This document shows positions 12,283 to 21,632 of a stretch of DNA of 64,000 nt, piece after piece; position 1 is the first letter of the stretch; every line of letters starts with the position of its first letter. The notes below the pieces were generated by a model. The model did not search any database, had not been told where the DNA came from, and saw nothing but the letters and a program-made list of their open reading frames with translations. Source of the DNA: a virus. The position numbers and the translations under genes were made by a program. The stretch lies in the UHGV virus genome UHGV-0084588; one strand, written 5' to 3'.

Positions 12283-13545
12283 GTGACTACTGCTTATCAA
12301 GTGCGGCCCGACAGCGCTTTTGGCTTCTCTCGAGAGTCCCGTACCTGGGGAGCCATCGATGTCACGCAACCCTTAACTACGTTGTGTTCAGACTACCACA
12401 CCTTTGAGATCGGTTTAAGTGCACTTGGTAAAGACTATACGTTAATCAGTCAATACCATCTTGCTGAACTACAAAACCGAACAGACACTTTACAAGATTG
12501 GTTAAATGAAAAGGCCGGAAACGTCATTCCCACTCTAAAAGCCGGATTGCCGAAACTGGAATTCAGTTGGGCACATTACCAATCAATTAATGCCGATGTA
12601 CCTGTCGAAACATATCTGTGTCCACCAGGGTACCACCACAGTCAAGATTTCAGCCTAGACGATGCTGATGACGTTGTCGTCGTTTGTGAGGACAAGTGGA
12701 AAGACAAATACCGTAATAGTGTGCTGTACAACATTAACGGTCAATGGGTACCGCACCAGACGGATACCGTAGGTGTGCGATTGCCTGGGGCCGGTAAAAT
12801 CGTACGGAGAGCATGTACGCCAGATATTGGCTGTATGGTTTTTGGTCAGCTAGGGAATGTTAAAACCTATCCAATCGCCAACCTTACGCTAAACAAGCTC
12901 GACACTACACGCGACTATTACTCCACGTTAATGATATCGCTGCCTGAGTCTATTACGGGGAAAACCGTGGGTTTCGTCATAGGCGGATTGTTACGTTGGT
13001 TGCCCCCGGACGGTTATTTCTCTGACCGTGCGATCATGATTTCTTTACCGAATTTTGATCTTGCACGGACCGTTCTGGAAACCCGCCGTTATTACGACTG
13101 GGATAGCATCGGTGTAGGGGATTTATCATCGCCTACCAACGTTCAACGTATTCGTAACCCTGAAACACTGAAGGCGCTTTTACTCCACGAATCCTCTTTT
13201 ATCTTTACGGTAGATAATCCGTATTTAGAAGAAGAAGTTGTGGGTGTTTCGCATAACGCCGTTTGGGGACGCTGTTACCTCAAGGACCCCAACGATCCTG
13301 ATTCTGAAAAACCATTAGGGTACTTAAATAATCGATTTGGTAAGACGGTAGGTTATTGGCCTACGTGGGAGGAAGGTGAGTGGGTATTTAACACTACCGA
13401 ATTCGACAGTCAAAACTACGTCTTTCGTGAAGCCCGGTGGTATAATCAGAAGAAGATTAACGATGCTCAAGCAATCGTTGGTCCATTCGGTCCCTGGGAA
13501 AAAGTGTATTTAGAAATGCATCGCTTTAAAGCACGAAAAAAATAA
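12283..13545 (+). CDS. Hypothetical protein (420 aa), divergent from the fiber genes
   Basis: Track ORF with GTG start, GAGGA about 10 nt upstream; ends at a bidirectional terminator; no motif recognised. Confidence 0.45.
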   Translation: MTTAYQVRPDSAFGFSRESRTWGAIDVTQPLTTLCSDYHTFEIGLSALGKDYTLISQYHLAELQNRTDTLQDWLNEKAGNVIPTLKAGLPKLEFSWAHYQSINADVPVETYLCPPGYHHSQDFSLDDADDVVVVCEDKWKDKYRNSVLYNINGQWVPHQTDTVGVRLPGAGKIVRRACTPDIGCMVFGQLGNVKTYPIANLTLNKLDTTRDYYSTLMISLPESITGKTVGFVIGGLLRWLPPDGYFSDRAIMISLPNFDLARTVLETRRYYDWDSIGVGDLSSPTNVQRIRNPETLKALLLHESSFIFTVDNPYLEEEVVGVSHNAVWGRCYLKDPNDPDSEKPLGYLNNRFGKTVGYWPTWEEGEWVFNTTEFDSQNYVFREARWYNQKKINDAQAIVGPFGPWEKVYLEMHRFKARKK

Positions 13546-15030: not shown

Positions 15031-15286
15031 ATAGGGACTGAAGTACCAGTTCAGTCCCTACGGACACGTTTCATTCGAAACGGATTGATTAAACCATTTG
15101 GGGAGACAGATCATGTCTACTAAAAAAAGAAAGTCTCAATGAGCTGCTCAAACGTCTTAAAGACTACACTCCATTTAGTACCTTCCGATAACAGGTACTA
15201 AAATTTTACAGTCTGCCCCTTTATTCTGCTACTCGGGATACCGGTAGGGGGTAGGGGGCATTATGTATACGGATATAAATAGCGGA

Positions 15287-15303
15287 GGTATACGTAGTAT
15301 ACC
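15287..15303. promoter_or_regulatory. Perfect 17-bp palindrome GGTATAC-GTA-GTATACC (candidate operator)
   Basis: 7-3-7 inverted repeat about 100 nt upstream of the first paralog gene; an extra GTATAC copy at 15265..15270. Confidence 0.35.
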
Positions 15304-15398
15304 GACATACTCTTCCCAGAGGAACGTAGTGACTTCCTTATTCCTCTTCTGCAATCCATAATAATAGACTCCCCTTTATTGAGATTAGCGAGTAAATC

Positions 15399-16136
15399 AT
15401 GAGAGAATTATTAGACGATATCTTTACTAACACCAGTTTAGAACTTTCTTCTACCGTTGTTAACGAACTATTAAAACAATCGCAACCTGCTAAGTTAATC
15501 GATGCTGGAACAATTAAACCTGAAGATTATCCAGACAGTGACGTTATCGACTGTATGATTGACGAATACGTGATAGGCAGTTACGCCAACCGCGTCTTCT
15601 TCGTTATTAATACCGAAACCAGTGTCATGTTAATCTATAAGTTGATCAGTGATGCCGAACTTGAAGTTGTGGCTGACCACATTCGTCTTCTTGCGAACAC
15701 GCCTACTAGTATCGATGATGTGCTTATTGGGAACGGTTGGGCTTTACCACCACTATTCTCTTACTTCCCTCTGTTTAGAAATGGGATAGGGTTACTCCGA
15801 AATGCAGAAAAGCTTCCCGATAACGTCGAGTTATCACTGCTTGGACCCGGCATCGATCTTTGTCCATTAGAAGACGAGGGCACGCTATATGGTTTGCGCA
15901 TCTATGTTTCTGTGTTAAAGGGTTACCGCGTTATTGAACTGATTGCATCCGACTTAGCAAAACAGATCCCAGATGTGGAAACGATTTCTAAAGCCACCCA
16001 CCTGGTTGAGATTAACTCAGACGATCCCTTATTGAAATATCACGAGAAAATTGATCTTCGTAAAATCGCCACGATGAGAGGGTGGAGTTGTGCTGAGATT
16101 ACGAAGGACTATCTGCTGTTAATTAAAACCGCGTAA
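15399..16136 (+). CDS. Hypothetical protein, member of tandem paralog family (C-terminal GW motif)
   Basis: 245 aa; C-terminus ...RGWSCAEITKDYLLLIKTA resembles the C-termini of the next three genes. Confidence 0.5.
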   Translation: MRELLDDIFTNTSLELSSTVVNELLKQSQPAKLIDAGTIKPEDYPDSDVIDCMIDEYVIGSYANRVFFVINTETSVMLIYKLISDAELEVVADHIRLLANTPTSIDDVLIGNGWALPPLFSYFPLFRNGIGLLRNAEKLPDNVELSLLGPGIDLCPLEDEGTLYGLRIYVSVLKGYRVIELIASDLAKQIPDVETISKATHLVEINSDDPLLKYHEKIDLRKIATMRGWSCAEITKDYLLLIKTA

Positions 16137-16166
16137 TTAAGAAAACCGAAAAAAGGAGAATATACC

Positions 16167-16721
16167 ATGTTTCAAACTGAACTGAAAAATGAAATTATCC
16201 AAACCCTTGAAAAAGGCGTAGGCGAACATTTCTTTGTCCGTCCTTATACCGTACTGACCAATACCATTATCCAGCCAGGTGCGATGATAGTAGGGGTAAG
16301 TGTACAAGCTGTAGAGGAAGCCCCGCTGCGTCGTAACATCACACGTAAAAACCATATTCCATTTAGAACGGGTTTTACAAATTACTTTCAGAGCTTACTG
16401 AAAGATAGCGTTTGGAAAACAGGCAGCTTCTTCCACGAAGGGAAGACTTCCACGCTGGTTTATAAAGAGAACACCAAGTATCTGGTTGATTTTCTCTTAG
16501 CGCGTCAATACGATTTCTTTCCTTCACCCACCGGTCTCACCCCAGACAATCCGAGTAAGCTGTTAAACCAAGACGAAGCTGAAGCACTGCGTGCACAACT
16601 GAGAAAAGAAGGTTGTGATGTCGATGACCATGAAACCTTAATCGGGGTTGCTAAAGCACACGGTTGGTATACCGTGCGTGTATTTGGGCGTCAGATGTTG
16701 TTCTTAGCTTATAACGTTTAA
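16167..16721 (+). CDS. Hypothetical protein, tandem paralog family member
   Basis: 184 aa; AAAGGAG RBS; C-terminus ...AHGWYTVRVFGRQMLFLAYNV. Confidence 0.55.
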   Translation: MFQTELKNEIIQTLEKGVGEHFFVRPYTVLTNTIIQPGAMIVGVSVQAVEEAPLRRNITRKNHIPFRTGFTNYFQSLLKDSVWKTGSFFHEGKTSTLVYKENTKYLVDFLLARQYDFFPSPTGLTPDNPSKLLNQDEAEALRAQLRKEGCDVDDHETLIGVAKAHGWYTVRVFGRQMLFLAYNV

Positions 16722-16732
16722 AGGATGGTATC

Positions 16733-17860
16733 ATGCATATCTGTCATAACGCACCGTCGCACAAACTTTATCTTGAATTGCTTTTCGAGGACTACAAGAA
16801 AGGGGTGCCGAAAATATTACTTAGCATCCCGCCTGATACGCAAACTGAATTGTTCGGTCGCGTTTTTGGTTGTACCGTTAACGCTTTGCCAGAACCAATC
16901 TGTGCGCCTGTGGATAATTGTGTTTTCGACGAACGAATTGAGGATTTTCAATTCACCTTTTACGTAAACGATTCTTTACTGTACGATAAACTCTATGTTC
17001 GTGAGTTGAAATCAAATCAGCGGTTAATGTACCGCGTCTATCCGCCCCACAGAGGGTCGATACTAGAGTATAAAATCAGACGGCTACCTTACGAGGGTGT
17101 GAATTTACTCGACCAGCAGGATATGGCTTTTCTGGAAGAACTCTGTGGATTTGAAATTGAGAAGATTCACGTAACCCAGGAAATATCCCGAAACGTACCT
17201 AGTCGTCATACCCCTTACGGTGGGTTTCCGTACGAGTTCACCGACACAGGACTAAGGCTCGTAACCGAATTTAACGACGTAATGTATTACGCAGTGTGTA
17301 TTGAACGTAAAGTAGTGGAGAAAGAAATGACAAGTACATTGAAAGAAGAATTAGCCCAATTCATTCGTGATGTTGAAGAGAAAAGCAAGAGCGATCACAT
17401 TTTCTCACAACGTTATCCTGAACTTATTGACGAAACCACCGATAGTGTCGTCGATGGTATACGCATTTTCCCAAGTGGTCTTGCAATTTACCGACTGCCT
17501 AGTGTTAATCAGCTTAAAGTCATGGAAATGCTAAAAGACGTTTTAGCAGAAGCAGGTTGGGAATATCGTTTCGATTGCAATTTCGAAGGGATGGCGTTAT
17601 TCGTTACAAAGAAAAATTATACGTTGTCAATCGATCTGCCCAAAAGTCAATATTACAGTTTCTTCCCGAAAGCGGATGACCGCACTGAAAAAGAACCTGC
17701 GATGTTACTTGATGCGGCAGAGTCCAATACGCTAATGATACATCTGCGGACGATTGATAAAGAGTTAACTACCAGTCATTTAACGACGATCGGTAAAGAT
17801 TACGGTTGGAAATCTGTCGAACCGTATGGCAGTCAGCTACTGTTTGTTGCTGACCTCTAA
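16733..17860 (+). CDS. Hypothetical protein, tandem paralog family member with internal duplication of the GW motif
   Basis: 375 aa; two copies of the motif: ...AGWEYRFDCNFEGMALFVTKK (internal) and ...YGWKSVEPYGSQLLFVADL (C-terminal). Confidence 0.55.
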   Translation: MHICHNAPSHKLYLELLFEDYKKGVPKILLSIPPDTQTELFGRVFGCTVNALPEPICAPVDNCVFDERIEDFQFTFYVNDSLLYDKLYVRELKSNQRLMYRVYPPHRGSILEYKIRRLPYEGVNLLDQQDMAFLEELCGFEIEKIHVTQEISRNVPSRHTPYGGFPYEFTDTGLRLVTEFNDVMYYAVCIERKVVEKEMTSTLKEELAQFIRDVEEKSKSDHIFSQRYPELIDETTDSVVDGIRIFPSGLAIYRLPSVNQLKVMEMLKDVLAEAGWEYRFDCNFEGMALFVTKKNYTLSIDLPKSQYYSFFPKADDRTEKEPAMLLDAAESNTLMIHLRTIDKELTTSHLTTIGKDYGWKSVEPYGSQLLFVADL

Positions 17861-17886
17861 TAAGTGAAACTACACTTTCTCTAACT

Positions 17887-17909
17887 GCCGCGCTTTAGTC
17901 GCGGCTTTT
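17887..17909 (+). terminator. Weak intrinsic terminator / attenuator
   Basis: GCCGCG-CTTTAGT-CGCGGC followed by TTTTG. Confidence 0.3.
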
Positions 17910-17928
17910 GTTAAGAAGGAAAAAAGAA

Positions 17929-18708
17929 ATGAAAATCCATTTAGACGACCTCTTTAAAACTGAACCGTACATGGTTAAAGGTTCGCTGGCTTCATTGTTG
18001 CTAGACGATAGATACCATCGAACGCTACAATTACAATCGGTAGAAACCGCGCCAACGGGAATTGAAGACGTGGGTCTTTACCAACGTATCACTCACACAC
18101 GTGGAGAATATCGTCGATATAAACCCGATACACTGACCGTTAAGCTTTGGCAAGTGGGCACAGGCAAGGTATTAAGTTATCGCGCCGTTGGTCTGTACCA
18201 CGTTGAACGTGCTTACACATGGTTAGAAGAAGTTAAAGAAATGGATTACGACCAGCTAAGCAAAAGACTTCGTGACCATAACGCCAGTTTACCGTTACGT
18301 AATTATTTCTCCACAGTTGAAAATAGTCGTTGTTTCGTTTCTCGCGAATCCATGATATTACCTGGAACTGACGTTCAGACGACGCTAAAAGACGTGGTTG
18401 TAAAGAAAGTCTTTCATGAGTCTGAACACGTTGGGTTTCGTATCTATTTAACCCACAAGAGACCATTTACCGTGATTCATGTTGTTACCGTACCCGAAGG
18501 ATCAGCAGTCTCTCGGGAACTTCCTGATGCTCGCGACCGTTGCCCTAATGAGCCGCTCTACTTAATGTCAGGAACAAAATCAACCGCGTTGATGTCTCGT
18601 TACAGCATGATAGATGTTGTTGACGCTGCTATGAAGCTAGGTTGGAAAGAAGTGCAGCAACACGGTAAACAGTTGCTGTTTATTGCCGATGTAAAACTTA
18701 ATTATTAG
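17929..18708 (+). CDS. Hypothetical protein, tandem paralog family member
   Basis: Track ORF 17908 starts at TTG; ATG at 17929 follows AAGGA; C-terminus ...LGWKEVQQHGKQLLFIADVKLNY. Confidence 0.55.
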   Translation: MKIHLDDLFKTEPYMVKGSLASLLLDDRYHRTLQLQSVETAPTGIEDVGLYQRITHTRGEYRRYKPDTLTVKLWQVGTGKVLSYRAVGLYHVERAYTWLEEVKEMDYDQLSKRLRDHNASLPLRNYFSTVENSRCFVSRESMILPGTDVQTTLKDVVVKKVFHESEHVGFRIYLTHKRPFTVIHVVTVPEGSAVSRELPDARDRCPNEPLYLMSGTKSTALMSRYSMIDVVDAAMKLGWKEVQQHGKQLLFIADVKLNY

Positions 18709-18720
18709 TGAGGTGGAACC

Positions 18721-19299
18721 GTGTACCGATTAATAGAAATGCGAAAAGACGTTTGGTTGGAAAATCTCGTCGATGGGGAGCTTGAGGGAGTTGGGCTTTC
18801 CTTACCAGAAAGGGCGGACACGGTATTAGCCTTTCTGATAAAGCGGGCAGCGAATGAACCTGTGGGGATTTTCGACGTGGATTACAAAGAACCGCGCGGA
18901 ATTCGTTTACGTAACATCTGTTGTGGTTTAGAGAACTTGACGGCAAGTCCTTTCGTAAACTACGCAAAACGTAAACTCCAGCCAGGGCAACATCTCTGGG
19001 TAGTTCTAGCGCCAGATATTCGCATTATGCGAGACGACCTGACTGCGTTTGTGCAAGCAACGAAAGTCAGTTTGTACAATCCTAATGCGGAACGTACCGA
19101 TATGCCGTTTACAATCACCTTAGAAGACGATGGAACGCAAGAGGGCATTGAGGCGATTACGGAATTAGTAAACTCTTATCCGGTTGCATCTATCGAGTTA
19201 GAAAACCCAAACCGATTACCGTTGGGGGATTTACTCGAATGGATTGAGCTGAATACTGAGTTCCTCATTAACTCCCGACAATATCGGTTCGATGTATAA
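18721..19299 (+). CDS. Hypothetical protein (192 aa)
   Basis: GTG start after GAGGTGG; followed by an intrinsic terminator; lacks the GW motif. Confidence 0.45.
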   Translation: MYRLIEMRKDVWLENLVDGELEGVGLSLPERADTVLAFLIKRAANEPVGIFDVDYKEPRGIRLRNICCGLENLTASPFVNYAKRKLQPGQHLWVVLAPDIRIMRDDLTAFVQATKVSLYNPNAERTDMPFTITLEDDGTQEGIEAITELVNSYPVASIELENPNRLPLGDLLEWIELNTEFLINSRQYRFDV

Positions 19300-19303
19300 C
19301 GTC

Positions 19304-19336
19304 GGTGGGGGTAAACCCCCACCTTTTATTTTTTGT
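19304..19336 (+). terminator. Intrinsic terminator
   Basis: GGTGGGGG-TAAA-CCCCCACC followed by TTTTATTTTTTG. Confidence 0.7.
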
Positions 19337-19429: not shown

Positions 19430-19891
19430 ATGAAATTTTTTACTTCCTTTTTAACCATCCTCTTAACGCTGGGTCTCAATACTGCACACGCAGCAATCAA
19501 TAGCTGGGAACAAATCCAGTCTCCAGACCAAGCCATCTACGAAATCGAAGACACTGAAGGCAACAGCCTCTCTATCAATTGCAGTACAGAAACCGCCAAT
19601 CGTAAATTTTACGGGCACAATGTTTGGTATTACGGAGAACCTGCAGGGGCAACAAACGCTGAGGATAACGCGCTCGATATTGTCGTAAATGGTAAAAAAT
19701 ACCGTATCCCTACCATCGACGGTAGCGACCGTTCAGAACAAGCCTGGGCGGATTTCATTAAAGCGGTCGGTGGGGCAAACCATTTTAGCTTGCTTATTAA
19801 CGATAACGTGGCAGCAGGGTTTACCGTAGAAGGCGAACGCCTTAACGAAACGTTTTTCCAGAACTGTGGACACAGCCGTCCTAACAAATAA
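19430..19891 (+). CDS. Secreted/periplasmic small protein (signal peptide)
   Basis: 153 aa; N-terminus MKFFTSFLTILLTLGLNTAHA is a classic Sec signal ending AHA; Cys present; AAAGGAG RBS; preceded by terminator plus promoter-like motif. Confidence 0.55.
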   Translation: MKFFTSFLTILLTLGLNTAHAAINSWEQIQSPDQAIYEIEDTEGNSLSINCSTETANRKFYGHNVWYYGEPAGATNAEDNALDIVVNGKKYRIPTIDGSDRSEQAWADFIKAVGGANHFSLLINDNVAAGFTVEGERLNETFFQNCGHSRPNK

Positions 19892-19913
19892 ATATTAATC
19901 TTTTTTAGAGTGC

Positions 19914-20306
19914 GTGAAAATGAATATCAGAACTATACTTTATACTATCATTATTTTCTGTGCGGTCGGAATTACTGGCACTTATGCTTTCGGTGATTCG
20001 GATGTCCGCTATTACGAACCGGCTCCTGACTCACCCATTATCAACCCGGATGAGTCCCCTACGTTAATGCGCAGTTTCGGTAAACTGCAAGTTTATCGTT
20101 TAGTGCGTGGTGAAACGTGTACGGGATTACTCATTGCTGACACCCGTGCACAAGTCTACCAACGTCTAACCGATATTGCTTGCGAACAACCGAAAGTAAT
20201 GTCAGTTAGTATCCATCCGCTATCAGTTGGTAACTATACCGCTGTGGACTTCTTTCATAACGCCGAATTAATTGGCCGTGTTACTTTAAATCGTCCTGCT
20301 GAATAA
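19914..20306 (+). CDS. Secreted or membrane-anchored small protein
   Basis: 130 aa; hydrophobic N-terminus ILYTIIIFCAVGITGTYA; GTG at 19914 or ATG at 19920. Confidence 0.5.
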   Translation: MKMNIRTILYTIIIFCAVGITGTYAFGDSDVRYYEPAPDSPIINPDESPTLMRSFGKLQVYRLVRGETCTGLLIADTRAQVYQRLTDIACEQPKVMSVSIHPLSVGNYTAVDFFHNAELIGRVTLNRPAE

Positions 20307-20324
20307 TCTAAAGGAGTAGTTGCA

Positions 20325-20810
20325 ATGAAACGTTTACATACGCTGATGTTCTTTCTGGTTTTCTTGTTTATCGGTGCCACACCAACTGTAGATGCGGCCT
20401 CCGTAGACGAATTACTTACCTGTGATGGAAACGCTTGGGAAGGTCAGCCAAATGCGTGCCCGAACATCAACGACTTGTACGATACCGATAAGTCATTTAA
20501 AGCTGTTGTTGATAAAACACTAGACCCGGTGGGACTGGATGGTATGTTCGGCTCTAAAGGTTACATGGATGGTCCTGGCGGTAACATGTATCCGGTAAAC
20601 ATCAACAACAAAATCTGGATTGAAAGTGGTGGTTGTAAAGCTAATGCTTGTGGCTGGGAATACATCGTAACGCTATACAACCCACACACCAAGAAACTCG
20701 TCGGTTATTACTACAACATCGACCCCGGTTATCTGATTTGGTTCGGTGATATCGGTGTTGCTGAATTCGCTTACCTGGTTAAGAAATACGCGGAACAATC
20801 TAAATACTAA
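20325..20810 (+). CDS. Secreted protein with Ivy-like CKxxxCG motif (possible periplasmic lysozyme-inhibitor fold)
   Basis: 161 aa; signal peptide MKRLHTLMFFLVFLFIGATPTVDA; ESGGCKANACGWEYIVT resembles the Ivy loop region (recalled E. coli Ivy: SACKPHDCGSQRIAV), but the loop His is not conserved. Confidence 0.5.
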   Translation: MKRLHTLMFFLVFLFIGATPTVDAASVDELLTCDGNAWEGQPNACPNINDLYDTDKSFKAVVDKTLDPVGLDGMFGSKGYMDGPGGNMYPVNINNKIWIESGGCKANACGWEYIVTLYNPHTKKLVGYYYNIDPGYLIWFGDIGVAEFAYLVKKYAEQSKY

Positions 20811-20821
20811 GGACTTTTATC

Positions 20822-21232
20822 ATGAAAACTATCATCAACACTCTTCTCATTGCAATTGCTATTCTGTTCTCTGTTAACGTATCAGCAAAAACAATACAGT
20901 TGCCAGACGGTATTAAGTACGTCAATAGCACCGACGATTTCTACTGTACGGAAATTGACGGTCTGTACTGCCAGGCGAAGAACCTGTTTAAATACAAAGG
21001 TAGCAGATACGTGTTCATCGTTGAGCAAGGTGGTGCCTGGTGCTACGACAGCCCAATGTCTGTACTCAACCTCGAAACGTGGAAGGCACAACGTCTTGAA
21101 TACAACGACAAACATTTGTGCTCAGGCAACAACAAACCATTCTTCAAAGTCGTAGATGGTGTACCGATGGTAGGGATATTAGACACTTCGGAAAAACCTA
21201 TCGTTGTAGCTATGGATAAACTTAAAATTTAA
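20822..21232 (+). CDS. Secreted small protein (signal peptide, 6 Cys)
   Basis: 136 aa; MKTIINTLLIAIAILFSVNVSA signal peptide. Confidence 0.5.
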   Translation: MKTIINTLLIAIAILFSVNVSAKTIQLPDGIKYVNSTDDFYCTEIDGLYCQAKNLFKYKGSRYVFIVEQGGAWCYDSPMSVLNLETWKAQRLEYNDKHLCSGNNKPFFKVVDGVPMVGILDTSEKPIVVAMDKLKI

Positions 21233-21242
21233 GGAGTAACTC

Positions 21243-21632
21243 ATGCGTCTCATCTGCGCTTTAGCATTCTTCTTCTCCCTGGGTGTAGCGGCATCTACTC
21301 AAGTTAACGATTTACTGCTAACCCCAAACAACAATACCGATTACCAGTACAATCCTCCGGGGTTTGAAGTTTGTGAAGTCGGTGAAACAATCTGCCAAGA
21401 AGTCGGCGCAGACGGGCGCTATATTCTGGTAAAAGCTGATGGTGGCACAATGTGTCCCGCAGGTTATTACTTTCTTCTCGATTCCGTTGCAAGAGAGGTT
21501 CTTCCTATCACCACGAAAACGTGCGACCCTACTGTTGTCTTAACTCTCGCTAAAAGCAAATCTCGCGACCGTTATCTGATCGTTATCGAAGAACGGGGCA
21601 AGATGGCTGGCGCTATCGAATTAGATCATTGA
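21243..21632 (+). CDS. Secreted small protein (signal peptide, Cys-rich)
   Basis: 129 aa; MRLICALAFFFSLGVAAS signal; AAGGAG RBS; followed by terminator 21643..21670. Confidence 0.5.
   Translation: MRLICALAFFFSLGVAASTQVNDLLLTPNNNTDYQYNPPGFEVCEVGETICQEVGADGRYILVKADGGTMCPAGYYFLLDSVAREVLPITTKTCDPTVVLTLAKSKSRDRYLIVIEERGKMAGAIELDH

Follow-up and report, generated by a model that had tools for sequence, protein, structure and literature searches.

A four-gene array of an orphan-domain family in a giant phage: possible non-virion docking proteins in phage-host conflict

The window analysed here is a 64,000-nucleotide stretch of DNA from a giant, uncultured phage of Salmonella/E. coli that seems to belong to the 'Bapsvirus' group, a clade that was proposed recently, occurs within clinical isolates and has never been grown in culture. 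The four consecutive plus-strand open reading frames described in the first-pass annotation were recovered with lengths of 245, 184, 375 and 266 aa: gene A at 15399..16136, gene B at 16167..16721, gene C at 16733..17860 and gene D, whose ORF opens at a TTG at 17908. The most likely start of D is the ATG at 17929, giving a gene at 17929..18708 and a protein of 259 aa, because the homologues are 257–259 aa long and a terminator-like hairpin with a T-run between C and D (17887..17915, hairpin 17887-17905, plus strand) overlaps the TTG start. Downstream of D lies a conserved 192-aa gene of PHROG 20879 (18721-19299), whose product is the gp176 homologue, and the terminator-like hairpin that follows it (19304..19333, plus strand) is probably the end of the transcription unit. 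The array is directly adjoined by a baseplate assembly gene (PHROG 3216) and by homologues of the tail proteins gp170 and gp171.

A non-coding block of ~130 bp upstream of the array (15213..15345, plus strand), with a GGTATAC-nnn-GTATACC hairpin, is probably its promoter or leader. In an alignment of six related elements the block is 98–100% identical, it is kept directly 5' of B in a relative without A, and it is partly conserved in SPN3US and phiEaH2. The block had no match in Rfam or in a tRNA search, its folding gave no significant structure (z -1.8), it was not repeated elsewhere in the 64-kb window, and its 9-mers were not meaningfully shared with other intergenic regions. A sigma-70 promoter scan yielded fewer matches than shuffled sequences and, as the phage has RNA polymerases of its own, carries no information. 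Given the intergenic gaps of 11–68 bp, the conserved upstream block and the terminator-like hairpins, the four genes would be co-transcribed from this block, which would act as the leader of an operon.

The pattern GW-x2-V-x3-G-x-Q-[LM]-LF ends B, C and D, 17–21 residues from the C-terminus. A strict regular expression run on the six-frame translation of the window matched exactly these three proteins, with 0.25 matches expected in shuffles. By blastp, B matched C at 3e-10 over 111 aa and C matched D at 1e-9 over 142 aa, in a database of these four proteins only, which inflates the E-values. Comparisons by hhalign, made with independent ortholog alignments for each family, gave probabilities of 94–98.6% for C with D and for B, C and D with the SPN3US type (98.6% for D), and the B–D pair was weaker (70.7%, E 3.8e-5). 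All-against-all and HMM-HMM comparison places the similarity of B, C and D well above chance. The conserved unit is a domain of 62–90 aa rather than a 20-residue motif, and it follows the pattern [IL]PDxxDR[ST]xN[DE]PxYLMS, a variable loop, a helix and then GWxxVxxxGxQLLF. With the family HMM, each of the four genes gave one copy and the rest of the window none. The module covers residues 118-184 of B (16518..16718, plus strand; 65 bits, or 68.8 bits by a profile lacking A), residues 311-375 of C (17663..17857, plus strand; 70.8 bits) and residues 198-259 of D (18520..18705, plus strand; LPDARDRCPNEPLYLMSG...GWKEVQQHGKQLLFIADVKLNY; 76.9 bits, and PHROG 26772 at E 2.8e-9). With the profile built without A, B, C and D score 69–75 bits. 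The signature residues P, D-R-[ST], N-[DE]-P, G-W and G-x-Q-L-L-F are present in C and D, and B keeps P, T, N-P, GW and G-x-Q-M-L-F. Judged by significant, in-register and terminal profile matches, B, C and D are members of a jumbo-phage module family.

Gene A is the most diverged member. Of the signature residues it keeps only P-D, GW and LLL; its motif (GWSCAEITKDYLLLIK) is degenerate and lacks G-x-Q. The motif initially ascribed to all four genes holds for B, C and D by regular expression, HMM and hhalign, and for A in this degenerate form only. An HMM built without A scores it at a non-significant 6.9 bits. The A family aligned in register with the D family over 163 columns (hhalign 68%, E 4.8e-5) and matched the module profile built without A at 57% (E 1e-4). 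The degenerate C-terminal module of A (15966..16133, plus strand, residues 190-245, IPDVETISKATHLVE...GWSCAEITKDYLLLIKTA) aligns in register with the family module. By profile-profile comparison only, A counts as a diverged family member. It is without a counterpart in the Enterobacter ludwigii relative (L021).

Gene C is composed of an N-terminal domain of ~200 aa followed by a B-like half, with residues 6-181 of B matching residues 203-373 of C (hhalign 97%, E 4e-11). The N-terminal domain occurs as two alleles that are roughly 35% identical in the alignment, and a split identity analysis showed different histories for the two halves of C. The middle string 'GWEYRFDCNFEGMALFV' of C (17555..17605, plus strand) had been read as a second motif and hence as a sign of internal duplication. 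The HMM found no second match at GWEYRF...GMALFV (residues 275-291), and hhalign of the string against the C-terminal module gave E 0.03–0.13 with a probability of <=2%, which leaves the duplication unsupported. An equivalent string is carried by B at the equivalent position, and W276 is invariant across B and C orthologs. At the sequence level, the string is a conserved middle-region feature of the B/C type with no detectable module copy. The N-terminal regions, previously called divergent, are so only in part, since B corresponds to the second half of C and a weak relationship extends across the full length of A and D; the description of a conserved module joined to variable partner regions stands.

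Searched exhaustively with the HMM, 1.84 billion proteins yielded 38 clusters, two of them false, leaving ~36. The module is terminal in proteins of 72–412 aa and stand-alone in proteins of 72–144 aa, and the members that could be placed in named genomes belong to giant phages of Enterobacterales and Shewanella. In PhiEaH1 gp105 the module is N-terminal, in FBKp24 gp041 it stands alone, and the element L016 has two tandem stand-alone copies. These C-terminal, N-terminal and stand-alone occurrences show the module to behave as a self-contained, autonomous domain. The stand-alone homologues lie in varied genomic surroundings, with DNA methylases and Bro-N, or a DnaB-like ATPase, as neighbours. 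One stand-alone homologue adjoins a Tad2-like gene, an anecdotal observation.

The positional orthologs of the array are SPN3US gp175 (SPN3US_0175, AEP84008 / YP_009153469), phiEaH2 gp097, CR5_165, Phobos gp176 and Derbicus gp170, all of which are annotated as hypothetical. As in the window, a minus-strand baseplate gene is followed by the family gene and then by the PHROG 20879 gene, and the C-terminal module is shared with the array (hhalign, tblastn). However, the orthologs are single-copy, 223–412 aa long and have unrelated N-terminal regions, whereas the window clade has four paralogs and is without the 105-aa gp174 gene. Among the array members, D is nearest to the gene that SPN3US-like phages carry in single copy. 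The survey of related phages gave a copy number of 1 at the syntenic position in SPN3US, phiEaH2, CR5, Phobos and Derbicus, 3 in the Enterobacter ludwigii element and 4 in the window clade, which bears out the proposed local expansion of a gene family. At the nucleotide level the array matched nothing in the genomes of cultured phages, no homologue was found in phiKZ, and the literature searched by accession did not mention SPN3US_0175 or its orthologs. C and D matched the C-terminal ends of PHROG 26772, 33648, 24489, 18480, 22167 and 27793 (best E 2.8e-9), all of 'unknown function'; A and B matched none of these six. The six PHROGs carry the module of the array on different N-terminal regions, and PHROGs splits the family by full-length similarity without recognising the common domain. 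The module is a previously undescribed autonomous domain that databases now divide among several groups of unknown function.

No other spot in this tail-gene neighbourhood, which is otherwise highly conserved, is as plastic as the array. The flanking tail genes are 91–99% identical between phages, compared with 40–99% for A–D, whose patterns are incongruent. The dN/dS ratio is 0.10–0.96 in the array and 0.01–0.09 in the flanks, and the array is at 3–10 times the ratio of the flanking genes; the highest values are those of A (0.3–0.96), and B, C and D have 0.1–0.38 (D alone 0.10–0.17). The ratio was <1 in every pair, which does not demonstrate positive selection. These ratios show purifying selection on the array, relaxed relative to the flanking genes. 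The comparisons also show evolution by duplication, truncation or fusion (B being the C-terminal half of C) and recombination at domain boundaries. The signature expected of a conflict locus, with mosaic alleles, domain-level recombination and raised dN/dS, is present, although the high divergence could reflect relaxed constraint alone, especially in A.

We hypothesize, tentatively, that the array is a one-to-four expansion of a jumbo-phage orphan-domain family and encodes non-virion docking proteins that act in phage-host conflict. One gene would have become four by a lineage-specific expansion. The conserved domain would be a common docking or binding module tying each protein to one conserved partner, which could be a protein hub or nucleic acid, and the fast-changing partner domains would provide target specificity in host takeover or anti-defence.

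The AF2 model of C (pLDDT 79.5) predicts the module as a strand at 323-326, helices at 328-341 and 347-355, and strands at 359-365 and 368-373. The C-terminal half of D was poorly modelled (pLDDT 30–50), so the fold searches used the C model only. This predicted topology and the weak winged-helix hints in Pfam would equally fit nucleic-acid binding. Searches of Pfam, NCBIfam and PADLOC with the four proteins, their homologues and the N-terminal regions gave nothing above threshold, and the anti-phage defence HMMs of PADLOC gave one chance-level match (E 0.027, 11 bits). The SPOR domain (PF05036) was rejected at 16.7 bits against a cutoff of 21, in B only, one of 23 modules. Weak recurring structural matches to PCNA, CYTH, PUR and SAS-6 were judged to be generic alpha/beta-meander noise, and no structural match to the sliding-clamp fold (PCNA / DnaN) was significant.

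It is also conceivable, with a rather low probability, that the module is a winged-helix-type nucleic-acid-binding domain and that the proteins are transcription or RNA regulators whose variable regions are sensor or oligomerisation domains. The predicted strand-helix-helix-strand-strand order of the module in both C and D is consistent with this, as are weak single-member Pfam matches to TBPIP/Hop2 (E 0.009), Mnd1 (0.12) and wHTH-HSP90 (0.25), a match to PDB 2kzv at E 1, and the location of some stand-alone homologues among replication and methylase genes. TBPIP/Hop2 and Mnd1 (PF07106, PF03962) were rejected, with a best score of 16.4 bits, which is below the cutoff of 22.8 and was reached by P0192 alone. 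The module shares the predicted order of strand, helix, helix and beta-hairpin with the MerR/excisionase winged helix (HTH_17, lambda Xis, Tn916 Xis), and the 'G-x7-G-x2-hydrophobic' wing pattern that we take to be typical of that group is superficially like its own. It differs in its neutral charge, in a long and variable inter-helix loop and in the lack of significant sequence or profile similarity. The Pfam families HTH_17, Exc, Tn916-Xis and Phage_AlpA gave no match at E up to 10 with 33 members, and no MerR/excisionase winged helix was among the structural matches listed. The excisionase/HTH_17 candidate was dropped when hhalign against a consensus and representatives (4j2n being the only verified sequence) gave shuffle noise. 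A basic DNA-binding surface of the MerR/excisionase type was likewise rejected on the neutral charge of the module. Docking is preferred over generic DNA binding because the net charge of the module has a median of 0 (range -6 to +3) with a pI of ~6.5, a crude proxy for a DNA-binding surface, and most full-length family proteins are acidic.

Of the proteins of SPN3US, 83 were detected in purified virions; gp175 was not one of them, whereas its neighbours gp167-171 and gp173 were (PMC5105663 Table S4), which shows this ortholog to be a non-virion protein. Since gp175 is missing from the virion mass spectrometry of SPN3US, we infer by analogy that the array proteins are intracellular accessory factors outside the virus particle. 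It is quite improbable that they help to assemble the tail or baseplate, or are virion parts of low copy number, with the module fixing variable domains for host recognition or chaperoning to the baseplate. The position directly beside the PHROG 3216 gene and the gp170 and gp171 homologues would agree with such a role, and a variable-plus-conserved architecture is common in receptor-binding proteins. However, the array is on the opposite strand and its block consists of non-virion genes, versions of the module that stand alone or are N-terminal occur in non-structural contexts (tRNA cluster, methylases, PhoH, ThyA), and no fibre, beta-helix or chaperone family was matched.

The T4-type internal-protein loci encode hypervariable anti-restriction proteins with a conserved capsid-targeting sequence. 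Like the array, they are tandem, mosaic and fast-evolving, and their otherwise unrelated proteins share a short conserved element for targeting or anchoring. Nevertheless, the T4 element is an N-terminal peptide of ~10 aa for head packaging, and the shared unit of the array is predicted to be a folded domain of ~65 aa. Moreover, packaged internal or ejection proteins (T4 IP-like, phiKZ inner-body paralogs) are found in the virion and gp175 is not, as is known for SPN3US only.

The chances are poor that the extra copies are redundant or decaying duplicates of one useful gene (D, the gp175 ortholog) without specialised roles. Gene A, with dN/dS up to 0.96, lost signature residues and absence from one relative, would suit such decay, and cultured relatives manage with one copy. 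On the other hand, all four ORFs are intact in each four-copy genome examined, B, C and D are under stronger constraint (0.1–0.38), and dozens of intact ortholog clusters exist for each of A–D. The idea that the ...G-x-Q-L-L-F-[IV] C-terminus is a QL[SD]LF-type sliding-clamp-binding motif, by which the proteins would dock on the host beta-clamp and subvert replication, was dropped as very improbable on predicted structure and motif variability. In its favour, most members have the motif at their very C-terminal end or close to it, and it resembles what is presumably the bacterial clamp-binding consensus. Against it, the segment is modelled with good confidence as the final strand in a folded beta-hairpin and not as a disordered tail, the Q varies (KELLL, KMLML, NQCLL and DYLLL exist), the motif is internal in PhiEaH1, and the QLLF spacing is one residue shorter than QLxLF.

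The expansion of non-virion docking proteins, our preferred reading, has a more specific and decidedly doubtful form, in which the module, so far seen only in jumbo phages, would be a new docking unit that brings interchangeable effector domains to one conserved hub, and the array would serve as an arsenal for anti-defence or persistence. As the hub, a component of host defence or replication is conceivable, or else a protein of a phage compartment. If this were true, the arsenal might aid a carrier-like survival of this uncultured 'Bapsvirus'-type chimallivirus in Salmonella, E. coli and Shigella isolates. For what seems to be a never-cultured clade found inside clinical isolates, a fast-diversifying non-virion array is a rational first target for studying host interaction or persistence. 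Furthermore, SPN3US is genetically tractable and carries gp175 as a single copy, which makes the question of function testable.

All four consecutive plus-strand ORFs reported by the first-pass annotation were found in the window, at 15399-16136 (gene A), 16167-16721 (B), 16733-17860 (C), and 17929-18708 (D). The D product most likely has 259 aa and starts at the ATG at 17929, because its homologues have 257-259 aa and a terminator-like hairpin (17887-17905) overlaps the upstream TTG. In blastp against a database of these four proteins only, which inflates the E-values, similarity was observed for B-C (3e-10, 111 aa), C-D (1e-9, 142 aa), B-D (4e-4), and A-D (1e-3 over 140 aa). Ortholog alignments, one for each array gene and one for the single-copy genes of SPN3US (gp175), phiEaH2, Phobos, CR5, and Derbicus, were compared by hhalign. 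The last 57-67 residues matched with 94-98.6% probability between C and D and between the single-copy group and each of B, C, and D, and B-D reached 70.7% (E 3.8e-5, 55 residues). Furthermore, residues 6-181 of B aligned with 203-373 of C at 97%, and the full-length A-D relation, weak at first, rose to 68% (E 4.8e-5) with deeper alignments. When the 64-kb window was translated in six frames, the HMM of the conserved C-terminal domain (module) matched it exactly four times, and each array gene ends in one of these matches. Against a module profile built without it, A scored 6.9 bits, below significance, yet profile-profile comparison still placed its last 27 residues in register with the module (57%, E 1e-4), so A is, judged by sequence, a diverged family member. 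The C-terminal similarity first seen as a GW...LLF motif has solid statistical support in B, C, and D, and weaker support in A. The proposed internal duplication in C was not borne out: around the supposed second motif (residues 275-291), a string that B has as well, no module copy was detectable by HMM or hhalign.

When 1.84 billion representative proteins were searched exhaustively with the HMM (E up to 1e-3), only 38 clusters emerged, two of them repeat-protein false positives. The family members have 72-412 aa and a conserved core, [IL]PDxxDR[ST]xN[DE]PxYLMS[AS], followed by a loop of 0-40 aa, a helix, and GWxxVxxxGxQLLF. This core is C-terminal in SPN3US-like, Erskinevirus-like, and Derbicus-like phages, N-terminal in the 246-aa Erwinia phage PhiEaH1 gp105 (L018 4956-5696), and a stand-alone protein of 72-144 aa elsewhere, including Klebsiella phage FBKp24 gp041 (119 aa, L017 4944-5303), which lies amid a phage tRNA gene cluster. 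Metagenomic contig L016 carries two tandem stand-alone module genes (134-373 and 536-784), and on contig L012 the module gene (119-415) adjoins a Tad2-like (PF11195) gene. Since it is found C-terminally, N-terminally, alone, and as tandem stand-alone copies, the module is, from its distribution among sequences, an autonomous domain. The members that could be placed in named genomes belong to jumbo phages of Enterobacterales and Shewanella. As the first reading by eye had indicated, no known family was recognised: nothing was found in Pfam, NCBIfam, or PADLOC, and PHROGs divides the members among several families of unknown function. The domain is an undescribed orphan, and the four-gene array is a lineage-specific mosaic in an uncultured jumbo-phage clade.

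The AF2 model of full-length C (pLDDT 79.5, pTM 0.48) contains several alpha + beta-meander units, and its module is predicted to fold as strand-helix-helix-strand-strand; the low-confidence D model has the same order of elements. A search of BFVD matched uncharacterised family members only, and a profile search of PDB sequences never gave an E below 0.9. A winged-helix-like fold is hinted at by the predicted topology and by a few sub-threshold Pfam matches (TBPIP/Hop2, Mnd1, wHTH-HSP90). The array products might be nucleic-acid-binding regulators, which we consider rather unlikely; with its median net charge of 0, the module cannot be called basic. A kinship with the excisionase/HTH_17 type was pure noise in a controlled test.

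The array genes are tightly spaced. A non-coding block of ~130 bp upstream of them (15213-15345) is 98-100% identical across six related elements, whose adjacent coding DNA differs by 1-60%, and variation in its GGTATAC/GTATACC hairpin is confined to the 3-nt loop. Where A is absent, the block still immediately precedes the first array gene. SPN3US retains part of it (81% over 69 bp), as does phiEaH2. Neither an Rfam family nor a tRNA matched the block, and its folding was not significant. C and the downstream 192-aa gene are each followed by a terminator-like hairpin. The GC-rich hairpin with a T-run between C and D (17887-17915), inside an apparent single operon, points to either attenuation or a division into two transcription units, A-B-C and D-192 aa. 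A conserved micro-ORF (~25 aa) that has a strong ribosome-binding site was also observed at 15113-15191. It reads MSTKKESLNELHKRLKDYTPFSTFR in the related locus L004, and in L003 and L006 the codons differ while the protein pattern is kept; the window copy is frameshifted (an A7 run vs. A6 in L004), giving MSTKKRKSQ*. In SPN3US and phiEaH2, a 105-aa gene (gp174) takes its place.

The tail/baseplate region of SPN3US and phiEaH2 has the same gene order as the window, and SPN3US gp171 and its phiEaH2 and Asesino homologues are 76-80% identical to the 420-aa protein at 12283-13545. Among these tail genes, a small minus-strand YdgH/BhsA-like gene (DUF1471, PF07338; 13598-13825) is kept in SPN3US (gp172) and all relatives; this bacterial periplasmic stress or biofilm family is unusual for a phage structural module. 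The array DNA had no nucleotide-level match in cultured phages. Exact or near-exact protein homologues lie on ~220-227 kb contigs from Salmonella, Shigella, and E. coli assemblies and metagenomes, and proteins of the window phage recur in many assemblies of these hosts. The circular 222-kb "plasmids" deposited with the complete genomes of E. coli 98232 from human urine (L020, NZ_CP173450.1) and a gull Enterobacter ludwigii (L021, NZ_CP134650.1) are close relatives of the phage. We infer that the phage fits "Bapsvirus", a proposed uncultured chimallivirus genus of ~220-226 kb from Salmonella/E. coli/Shigella assemblies, syntenic with Seoulvirus; the deposits and the recurrence fit its "bacterial assembly-associated phage" carrier state (PMC12768965).

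The sole experimental datum on function is indirect: purified SPN3US virions yielded 83 proteins, among them the neighbouring tail proteins gp167-171 and gp173 but not gp175. phiKZ has no gp175 homologue (PMC5105663 Tables S1 and S4). Because of the absence from virions, the tight spacing, the conserved upstream block, and the terminator-like hairpins, we tentatively favour intracellular accessory proteins acting at the phage-host interface, where each would combine a common docking domain with variable domains conferring specificity. An anti-defence role is a hypothesis. Roles in tail or baseplate assembly, to which the location among tail genes would point, seem improbable. SPN3US gp175 offers a tractable entry point to array function.

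The family expansion claimed at first pass is supported by copy numbers of one in the cultured relatives, three in the E. ludwigii element, and four in the window clade. The E. ludwigii element (L021 3284-5863) encodes proteins of 185, 383, and 257 aa; it lacks A and has the conserved block immediately before B. Across four related genomes, flanking tail genes are 91-99% identical vs. 40-99% for A-D, with incongruent patterns: the window shares 99, 88, 43, and 83% (A, B, C, D) with L004 and 73, 71, 94, and 88% with L003. C has a different history in each of its halves, and its alignment agrees, showing two N-terminal alleles attached to a C-terminal half that hardly varies. The first-pass view of a conserved module with variable partner regions holds. 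Pairwise dN/dS was 0.01-0.09 for flanking genes, 0.10-0.17 for D, 0.17-0.26 for B, 0.16-0.38 for C, and 0.3-0.96 for A. By these sequence measures, the array genes are functional, far less constrained than their neighbours, and reshuffled by recombination. It seems improbable that they are redundant or decaying duplicates, and clamp binding through QLLF is very improbable. Just downstream of the array, a series of small plus-strand genes (153, 130, 161, 136, and 129 aa; 19430-21632), the first four with signal-peptide-like N-termini and one with a Pfam YfjT (PF27224) match in a relative, resembles an accessory cluster for secreted or periplasmic proteins.
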